From: Escherichia phage vB_EcoS_FP
Sequence record: MT682706.1
DNA length: 43,757 nt
Reading direction: 5' to 3' (one strand)
The stretch's first letter is position 1. Each line of letters starts with the position of its first letter. Of this stretch, positions 4,815-5,902 are shown piece by piece. Under the pieces are notes generated by a model that made no database searches, had not been told where the DNA came from, and saw only the letters and a list, made by a program, of their open reading frames with translations. Both the position numbers and the translations under genes were made by a program.

Positions 4815-5321
4815 ATGAGCAAAGCAGCACTAAAGATGGGTGAGGGAAATTTCAAGGCGCTTTACAACAAGAAGTATGGCGATATTGCTATGGTGGCAAT
4901 GAACCGCAAGTACACGCCAGAGGAAGCTTTCGATTTCGCAGTGAGATACTTCTCCTGGGCTGAGAGTGAGGCAATCAAAGCTACTGAGACGGCTGCATTC
5001 CAGGGCGTGGTTAGCGAGAGCCTGGTTCACAAGCCTCGAGTGTTCACCTTAACTGGACTGGCACTATTTATGGGTGTCAATATCAATAGATTCGCTCGCT
5101 GGCGTACTGAGGCTGGTTACTCTGACGTGATGGAATTCATTGATAACGTAATTTATGAGCAGAAGTATCAGCTTGGCGTTGCAGGCATCATCAACTCCAC
5201 AATCGTTGGTAAAGAGTTAGGGATTGATAAGCCGCAGGAGATTACCATTAGCAATAACTCCACTGCTAACGACGTTGATAGCATGAAGGAAGCGCTGGAG
5301 TCCGTGATTAGTAAGCTATAG
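4815..5321 (+). CDS. terminase small subunit
   Basis: 168 aa; position immediately upstream of large terminase; strong RBS AAGGAGG. Confidence 0.6.
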   Translation: MSKAALKMGEGNFKALYNKKYGDIAMVAMNRKYTPEEAFDFAVRYFSWAESEAIKATETAAFQGVVSESLVHKPRVFTLTGLALFMGVNINRFARWRTEAGYSDVMEFIDNVIYEQKYQLGVAGIINSTIVGKELGIDKPQEITISNNSTANDVDSMKEALESVISKL

Positions 5322-5389
5322 CACTTATTGTTAAAAGAAGAGGCCCAATCAATGAGGTAATGGGCCCAACAAACTAACGAGGTGGCGAT

Positions 5390-5902
5390 ATGAATTGGCA
5401 TGATTATTTTGAATACAAAGATGGGAAGATTTACTGGAAAGATTACGATAGCGAGAGGCTGGGAAGGAGAAGGATACAGCGAAGATTCATAGGGAAAGAG
5501 GCTGGCGGAATTGATAAAAGTCTAGGGTACGTTAGGGTGAACATGCCTGGTAAAAAATATTGGGTTCATAGAATAATCTGGGAAATGCATAACGGAGCAA
5601 TACCAGAAGGTATGCAAATTGACCATATAAATCATGTTAGAGATGATAACAGGATAGAAAACCTTAGGTTAGTTACAATCAAGGAAAATAGAAAGAATCA
5701 GTCAATAAATTCGAGGAATAAGACCGGGGTTACCGGAGTCTGCATAGTGTCTAGGACTGGTAAGTATGCAGCCCAAATAAAAAAGGATGGAGAGAATATT
5801 CACTTGGGATTCTTTGATAATATTCACGATGCGTCGATTGTCAGGGCGAGAGCTGAATTTATTCTTGGTTATCATAAAAACCACGGGAGGAAGGATGAGT
5901 GA
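5390..5902 (+). CDS. HNH homing endonuclease
   Basis: HNH motif block HRIIWEMHNGAIPEGMQIDHINHVRDDNRIENLRLVTIKENRKN; inserted between terminase subunits. Confidence 0.85.
   Translation: MNWHDYFEYKDGKIYWKDYDSERLGRRRIQRRFIGKEAGGIDKSLGYVRVNMPGKKYWVHRIIWEMHNGAIPEGMQIDHINHVRDDNRIENLRLVTIKENRKNQSINSRNKTGVTGVCIVSRTGKYAAQIKKDGENIHLGFFDNIHDASIVRARAEFILGYHKNHGRKDE

Follow-up and report, generated by a model that had tools for sequence, protein, structure and literature searches.

The window analysed here is the whole 43,757-nucleotide (nt) stretch of Escherichia phage vB_EcoS_FP (sequence record MT682706.1), an Rtp-like (T1-like) coliphage of the family Drexlerviridae, subfamily Braunvirinae, and the element in question is a segment between its two terminase genes that carries an HNH endonuclease gene. 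An open reading frame (ORF) of 170 amino acids (aa) at 5390–5902 (+) lies between the stop codon of the small terminase gene terS and the start codon of the large terminase gene terL, from the first of which it is separated by a leader of 68 nt, and matches the Pfam family HNH_3 with an E-value of 5.3e-23. The earlier note, made from the sequence alone, had placed an HNH gene between the terminase subunits and had described its 3′ end as overlapping the terL frame, and both statements hold: the terL ATG at 5895–5897 and the HNH stop TGA at 5900–5902 give an 8-nt overlap, ATGAGTGA. The gene is free-standing, being in neither an intron nor an intein; a Rfam scan of positions 3500–8000 finds no group I or group II intron and no RNA family around the HNH gene, a tRNA-Arg at 4244–4321 being the sole match. 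No second (paralogous) HNH gene is present within the window. The terminase region is 92.5% identical to that of Escherichia phage 2725-N35 and of BEK2/BEK3, and 89.5% identical to that of phage Rtp; over the whole genome the nearest records are those of OzMSK/Msk and of the Veterinaerplatzvirus phages (∼90%), all of them Drexlerviridae, Braunvirinae. The segment is very probably a free-standing homing-endonuclease gene, a selfish mobile cassette in the terS–terL spacer of an Rtp-like coliphage that is dispensable for DNA packaging.

Comparison with relatives that lack the insertion, which had been proposed as a check, finds precise empty sites. In SU57, DTL, OzMSK/Msk, and vB_EcoS-2004V, terS ends in TAA and is followed by a spacer of 16–19 nt (for example CAATAAGAGGGTATAACA) and then by the terL start codon, whereas in HNH carriers the junction alignment has TAG as the terS stop (5319–5321 in the window), and this TAG plus a cassette of ∼573 nt replace the short spacer. 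The cassette is thus polymorphic for its presence at one fixed site, and the empty sites of close relatives are precise. A query with the terS–terL region returns 96 related records, and the leader together with the HNH gene is found in 12 of them, always at the terS–terL site. Most relatives are without an HNH gene at this site, so that the universal presence with the same flanks that was named in advance as the observation speaking against mobility is not what is seen. A 73-nt leader query matches 12 records, every one at the terS–HNH junction, which rules out occurrence of the leader at other loci or with other genes. The leader is found only with the HNH gene and is absent from the empty sites along with it, in agreement with the proposal that the gene has a regulatory element of its own. 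Because the empty-site spacer is near-identical across lineages with terL genes more than 30% apart, the comparison points to the empty terS–terL state as ancestral and the insertion as derived.

Two side observations concern other insertions in these genomes. In phage MM01 the terS–terL gap holds a different insert of ∼94 nt (record L020, positions 4283–4393). The insert codes for a hydrophobic peptide of 31 aa (MIICTFLGWWMMTKNLNAGLLYIAINLGVSQCL) that is read from the ancestral ribosome-binding site, and it overlaps with the start of terL; the presence of a different insert in the same gap marks the gap as an insertion hot spot. European Nucleotide Archive (ENA) contigs L012–L019, which have the same HNH allele as the window, carry a second HNH_3 gene (1245–1748, 167 aa) ∼700 nt upstream of terS. 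This second gene is without the promoter module described below, overlaps the preceding ORF, and has no counterpart in the window; it rules out the generalization that HNH genes of the lineage always come with a promoter module.

The HNH_3 (PF13392) match covers aa 57–101 with 80.8 bits against a gathering cut-off of 24.8 and is the sole Pfam match of the protein, PF01844 giving no match even at E up to 5; PHROG 99, a family annotated as HNH endonuclease, gives 4e-60. Among solved structures, sequence comparison finds a relative only in I-HmuI (1U3E), the intron-encoded nicking enzyme of SPO1, at ∼24% identity, and residues D78, H79, N91, and N100 align with the catalytic ββα-metal residues D74, H75, N87, and N96 of I-HmuI. 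D78 and H79 do not vary among 60 homologues, in which N91 and N100 are conserved to at least 90%. The AlphaFold model, which was built on the homologue alignment, has a predicted local distance difference test (pLDDT) score of 90.5, and its top match in the PDB by Foldseek is 1u3e (E 2.6e-4, probability 1.0), with a template-modelling (TM) score of only 0.41 since the domain orientations differ. The N-terminal part consists of β-hairpins. The C-terminal domain has the fold of the AP2 domain of AtERF1 (1gcc; root mean square deviation 1.2 Å over 50 columns, TM(target) 0.67, probability 1.0), with further fold matches to the AP2 domains of TEM1 and WRINKLED1. By sequence the AP2 assignment stays below threshold (phmmer E 0.65), and Rao1 is the one allele in which Pfam finds AP2, at E 0.015. 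Relative to the 2725-N35 orthologue the gene has 18 synonymous and 4 non-synonymous codon differences, which indicates that the protein is under purifying selection.

The gene thus encodes an HNH_3 nuclease of the I-HmuI type, whose catalytic residues are intact and which has an AP2-type DNA-binding fold at its C-terminus, and in view of the I-HmuI and AP2 matches its architecture is the familiar HNH plus AP2 homing-endonuclease type. The likeness to I-HmuI consists in the aligned D/H...N...N core, in the best PDB match by both sequence and fold, and in an elongated multi-domain DNA-binding architecture. The two differ in that the present gene stands free between two genes and not in a group I intron, and in that its C-terminal DNA-binding module is AP2-type, whereas the C-terminal DNA-binding domain of I-HmuI is a helix-turn-helix. 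Of the two possibilities that the earlier note had left side by side, a mobile homing endonuclease with its own regulatory element is the one supported by the empty sites, by the distribution among related records, and by the type of protein. Coordinates of the features at the locus are collected in Table 1.

Table 1. Features of the terminase region of the window (positions are those of the whole stretch).
Feature	Position	Strand	Basis or remark
tRNA-Arg, anticodon TCT	4244–4321		5′ of the terminase genes
Terminator-like hairpin	4749–4766		5′ of terS
terS, small terminase, 168 aa	4815–5321	+	Pfam GP3_package 2.4e-12; PHROG terminase small subunit 1.6e-56; junction alignment
Recombinant patch, ∼1.5 kb, in Msk/OzMSK-like genome	5300–6800	.	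Sliding identity profiles
Facultative cassette, ∼573 nt (leader plus HNH ORF body)	5322–5894	+	Alignments with SU57, DTL, OzMSK, 2004V
Inverted repeat, 6-base-pair stem, 13-nt loop spanning the −10-like hexamer	5342–5366 (GGCCCA 5342–5347, TGGGCC 5361–5366)	+	Sequence
Extended −10-like TGaGGTAAT	5353–5361	+	In register 20 nt after the upstream element
HNH Shine-Dalgarno GAGG, 7 nt 5′ of ATG	5379–5382	+	Sequence
HNH gene, 170 aa	5390–5902	+	Pfam; I-HmuI 1U3E by sequence and fold; PHROG 99
HNH_3 core, aa 57–101	5558–5692	+	
AP2-type DNA-binding domain, ∼aa 113–160	5726–5869	+	
terL Shine-Dalgarno GGGAGG inside last HNH codons (conserved ..NHG.. motif)	5885–5890	+	Sequence; C-terminal H162/N164/H165/G166 conserved in family
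terL, large terminase, 523 aa	5895–7466	+	Pfam Terminase_6C; PHROG 38; N-terminus aligned with relatives
Portal gene	7488–8768		

The second possibility was that the gene is a terminase-associated HNH of the HK97 gp74 type, which would cut the genome ends together with TerS and TerL and would be needed for packaging. As in HK97, an HNH nuclease is encoded beside the terminase genes, here directly between terS and terL and apparently in translational coupling with the latter, and HNH genes beside terminase genes are common in cos phages (PMC3592412). Nevertheless, a packaging role is hardly credible. SU57 and DTL, whose terL 5′ part is 94–96% identical to that of the window, have no HNH gene at the terS–terL site, and when the four HNH alleles are run by tblastn against the whole genomes of Msk and 2004V, there is no match at E up to 1; with no detectable HNH_3-like gene anywhere, these two natural relatives rule out an HNH that is essential for packaging. 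The cos-associated HNH endonucleases have a zinc site, either [CxxC]2 or CxxC plus CxxH, and the gene order HNHE-TerS-TerL (PMC3592412), whereas the present protein, whose sole Pfam match places it in the I-HmuI-type subfamily, has a single Cys (C117) and hence no CxxC/CxxH zinc site. The gene order here is terS-HNH-terL, as against gp74-type genes, which precede terS at the cos end; an RNaseH-like nuclease domain is still present in terL itself, and the HNH gene is not conserved in the lineage. T1-like phages package by a headful mechanism from a pac site, which also counts against an end-processing HNH; in contrast to the HK97 gp74 type, the lineage of the window is headful-packaging and not cos.

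Sliding identity profiles place the HNH gene at the left edge of a foreign patch that comprises the gene and the 5′ part of terL. Against OzMSK, which is the best overall relative and is HNH-less, identity is 97–100% in the 3′ half of terS up to ∼5300, 52–80% across the first ∼880 nt of terL, and again 88–99% beyond ∼6870; inside the patch the window is 94–100% identical to the SU57-type terL. The window and 2725-N35 share 96% identity in the cassette and 80–83% in the structural genes, so that the cassette is more conserved between carriers than the genome around it, as would suit the mobile element envisaged earlier. The patch fits what homing with asymmetric co-conversion would leave. The terL gene itself is variable in this region: its first ∼880 nt (5895–6775, the ATPase half) fall into at least three allele classes with 66–70% nt identity (window compared with records L001, L002, L006, L008, and L009), and in the same phages terS and the 3′ part of terL are 87–94% identical, except in 2004V and Rao1.

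Four HNH alleles occupy the site. Allele A is that of the window, 2725-N35, BEK2/3, RobRod40, and ENA contigs L012–L019; allele B is that of Rtp; allele C is that of Rao1, TR1–3, and CY1; and allele D is that of JeanPiccard. As proteins the four are 28–44% identical, yet the leader is common to all of them at 90% identity or more. In 30-nt blocks, identity among carriers is 83–97% in the leader, 20–60% from ∼12 codons into the ORF, and recovers at terL. The orthologues at the same site and behind the same leader include Rtp rtp20, 2725-N35 QHJ72677, the BEK2/BEK3 genes annotated as homing endonuclease, JeanPiccard bas02_0002, and Rao1 gp12. The 2725-N35 and BEK alleles are 96–98% identical to the HNH gene of the window, and the Rtp, Rao1, and JeanPiccard alleles are the divergent ones; what sets the window apart from these orthologues is a private mutation in the −10 region of the leader and a different (Msk-like) genome backbone.

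The leader resembles a promoter module that recurs in this phage. The earlier note had recognized a degenerate copy of the upstream element of that module before the HNH gene; the element, ATAGCACTTATTGTTAAAAG, lies at 5318–5337 (+), one base further left than had been given, has the form TAGCA-N5-TGTTA of a degenerate palindrome, and overlaps the terS stop. At two or fewer mismatches ATAGCACTTATTGTTAAAAG has two further copies in the window against 0.01 expected, the window contains three copies in all when up to three mismatches are allowed (likewise 0.01 expected), and looser matching finds ∼14 copies of the promoter module. The layout of the module is (A)AATAGCAC-GAAT-TGCTAAA, exactly 20 nt, TATAGT/TATAAT, a CATCGAAACGAAA-like box, a ribosome-binding site, and ATG, with the short-form consensus ATAGCAC-N4-TTGCTAAA-N20-TATAGT. 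Module sites are at 1704, 2215, 3150, 5318, 14102, 27213, 27790, 31549, 33100, 35596, and 39023 on the (+) strand and at 25343, 32608, 42493, and 42927 on the (−) strand. TAGCA-N5-TGCTA forms a palindrome centred near −42, and TTGCTA, at 22 nt from the −10, is too far away for a normal sigma-70 −35 hexamer; the phage-wide module looks factor-dependent and class II activator-like in its layout. Several copies carry inverted repeats, or even a terminator hairpin, inside the 20-nt spacer.

A position weight matrix (PWM) was built from 11 canonical module copies and scored over ∼87,000 positions. The upstream element of the leader obtains 18.7 bits and rank 14, and the whole 66-nt leader module obtains 11.4 bits and rank 13, which makes it the weakest copy (the canonical minimum is 36.7). 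The −10-like hexamer GGTAAT at 5356–5361 follows the upstream element after exactly 20 nt, the spacing of all canonical copies, and because the register is exact through the −10 the likeness covers the whole module, so that "degenerate copy" is an accurate description. The leader shares its TTGTTAAAAG sub-variant with the module copies at 27213 and 33100 and with the helicase promoter of MM01, and resembles this helicase-promoter sub-variant through the −10 and the CCCAACAAA box. To judge from these matches, the leader is a paralogue of the promoter module of this phage, weak but in register.

In its −10 region the window differs from all other carriers. G5357 is an A-to-G change at −11 seen in the window only, where the sequence is TGAGGTAAT; the 13 other carrier loci, representing all four alleles, read TGAGATAAT (GATAAT). 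The window hexamer GGTAAT scores −0.6 bits, GATAAT 3.6 bits, and the canonical copies at least 7.8 bits, and the window thus fails the TATAGT/TATAAT pattern with A at −11. In the other carriers the leader holds a plausible extended −10 (TGaGATAAT), and the private change probably weakens, cripples, or silences the leader promoter of the window, where the HNH gene would then have to be expressed by read-through from the terS promoter region. The change is synonymous in a two-codon mini-ORF, ATG AG(A/G) TAA, at 5352–5360. For the terS-HNH-terL unit, TGgTATAAT at 4783–4791, directly after the terminator-like hairpin that precedes terS, is a candidate extended −10 promoter, of a type other than the ATAGCAC module.

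The GGCCCA..TGGGCC hairpin that had been reported in the leader stands as a stem but not as a significant fold. The inverted repeat is present, the leader fold has a z-score of −1.32, and 21 of 200 shuffled sequences fold as well as it does, so the hairpin is no better than chance. Across five alleles no compensatory changes are found in the leader structure, and in JeanPiccard two of the pairs are broken without compensation. A function of the hairpin as an intrinsic terminator is ruled out, since it has no T-run and is missing from the terminator scan. The minimum free energy fold pairs 5322–5333 with the Shine-Dalgarno sequence of the HNH gene, a pairing predicted for read-through transcripts only, which recalls I-TevI, segB, and Aeh1 mobE (PMC2988022). 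Given the z-score and the lack of covariation, a regulatory RNA structure in the leader is treated as unsupported.

An alternative origin of the leader is that it is an expanded remnant of the ancestral terS–terL spacer and terL translation start (AAGAGG-N8-ATGAG, of which the mini-ORF ATG AGG TAA would now be a part) and not an imported promoter, its likeness to the module being partly fortuitous. In a MAFFT alignment the leader falls opposite the empty-site spacer and terL start, AAGAGGNNNNNNCAATGAG occurs in the leader without a mismatch and nowhere else in the window does so, and JeanPiccard has GTG at the start of the mini-ORF as DTL has GTG at the start of terL. The AAGAGG-N8-ATGAG held in the 20-nt module spacer is identical to the ancestral terL translation start at 13 of 19 positions. 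The pattern was, however, chosen after the alignment had been seen, and both sequences are translation-start regions; a rough chance estimate is ∼0.04–0.12. In addition, the upstream element together with the exact 20-nt spacing is recognized as a module, and the leader resembles the helicase-promoter sub-variant. This origin for the leader is rather unlikely, although the remnant and module-copy readings are not mutually exclusive, and the AAGAGG-N8-ATGAG likeness may be a vestige of the target site, for which the statistics are weak.

For the cassette as a mobile element the following course of events can be proposed. The HNH gene would receive at least read-through transcription from the terS promoter region and would be translated from its own GAGG Shine-Dalgarno sequence, with translational coupling to terL, whose Shine-Dalgarno sequence now lies inside the 3′ end of the HNH gene. 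In a mixed infection the enzyme would nick or cut HNH-less genomes at or near the conserved terS–terL junction or in the 5′ part of terL; for free-standing endonucleases a cut hundreds of base pairs away from the gene itself is common (PMC2988022). Recombinational repair from an HNH-carrying genome would then copy the cassette and flanking terL sequence, that is, intronless homing with co-conversion. With the terL Shine-Dalgarno sequence at that place, a deletion would have to be precise to be tolerated and to leave terL translatable; the T4 literature holds that a host signal embedded in an endonuclease gene favours retention of the gene (PMC2988022).

Several observations weigh against this proposal. 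SU57 and DTL, which have the same terL type as the window, carry HNH_3 genes elsewhere in the genome, and a requirement for HNH in trans is thus excluded by Msk and 2004V only, both of which have other terL types. Within the patch, the terL 5′ allele of the window is nearest to that of HNH-less SU57 (94–100%), nearer than to that of HNH-carrying 2725-N35, and deeply divergent terL 5′ allele classes occur in phages with and without HNH. No single sampled phage can be named as donor of the patch, and ordinary mosaic recombination affecting the terL ATPase domain could have produced it. A target-immunity mark was looked for at the terL start in the form of fixed carrier/non-carrier differences, and the first 60 nt of terL show none. 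Finally, the leader −10 is defective in this phage, and the leader RNA structures are without covariation.

These observations bear in part on another explanation, in which the gene is resident and no longer mobile: an old insertion kept for the terL signals (the Shine-Dalgarno sequence and possibly a promoter) or for a function such as co-infection exclusion, its patchiness being due to losses and ordinary recombination. Such a gene would suit the embedded terL Shine-Dalgarno sequence and the nearness of the terL 5′ allele to that of an HNH-less phage, and conservation of the leader at 90% or more over alleles that are 28–44% identical suggests either constraint on the leader or long residence. 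Yet the near-identical empty-site spacer, the greater identity of the cassette than of the backbone between carriers, and an intact catalytic site under purifying selection all argue against residence, which is accordingly considered improbable in comparison with a mobile homing endonuclease.

Free-standing homing-endonuclease genes of this kind are known from the T-even phages, where they have late promoters of their own, hairpins that sequester the ribosome-binding site, signals of host genes embedded in them, and cleavage sites far away from the point of insertion (PMC2988022). As with T4 mobA–E and segA–G and Aeh1 mobE, the present gene lies between conserved genes, is sporadic in distribution, and has flanks that apparently moved along with it, and it has a promoter-like element of its own, a possible leader pairing with the ribosome-binding site, and embedded signals of the host gene (PMC2988022). 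In contrast to those genes, it is found in a phage of the Drexlerviridae, its module is Rtp-type and not a T4 late promoter, its RNA structure is without covariation, and its homing is predicted from sequence comparison.

Other features of the region, listed in Table 1, require little comment. The tRNA-Arg(TCT) gene is kept in SU57, 2725-N35, OzMSK, and MM01 as well, and the minus-strand ORFs at 5702–6229, 5168–5401, and 5859–6143 have no PHROG match and are taken as spurious.

The cassette is a real but ordinary feature. GenBank already lists near-identical genes at this site as HNH or homing endonuclease; a literature search found no paper on this particular cassette. A more far-reaching possibility, which is speculative and at present doubtful, is that the terS–terL gap of the Braunvirinae may be a fixed "landing pad" with an invariant promoter-like leader and a hypervariable slot. 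The slot would hold at least four ancient HNH-AP2 alleles (28–44% identical), kept as a trans-lineage polymorphism and each targeting rival genomes, and the adjacent ATPase half of terL, with its three or more allele classes at 66–70% nt identity between flanks at 87–94%, would be the diversifying target of an endonuclease arms race.

For the phage group, the correct annotation of the gene is a free-standing HNH-AP2 homing endonuclease, not a packaging factor, and terL phylogenies should allow for a recombinant patch beside it. The two minor points of wider interest are the one conserved leader before four very divergent alleles and the unusually polymorphic 5′ half of the adjacent terL gene. 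Together they make the locus a convenient and genetically tractable E. coli system in which to test, beyond the T-even phages, how endonucleases drive gene conversion and intronless homing.

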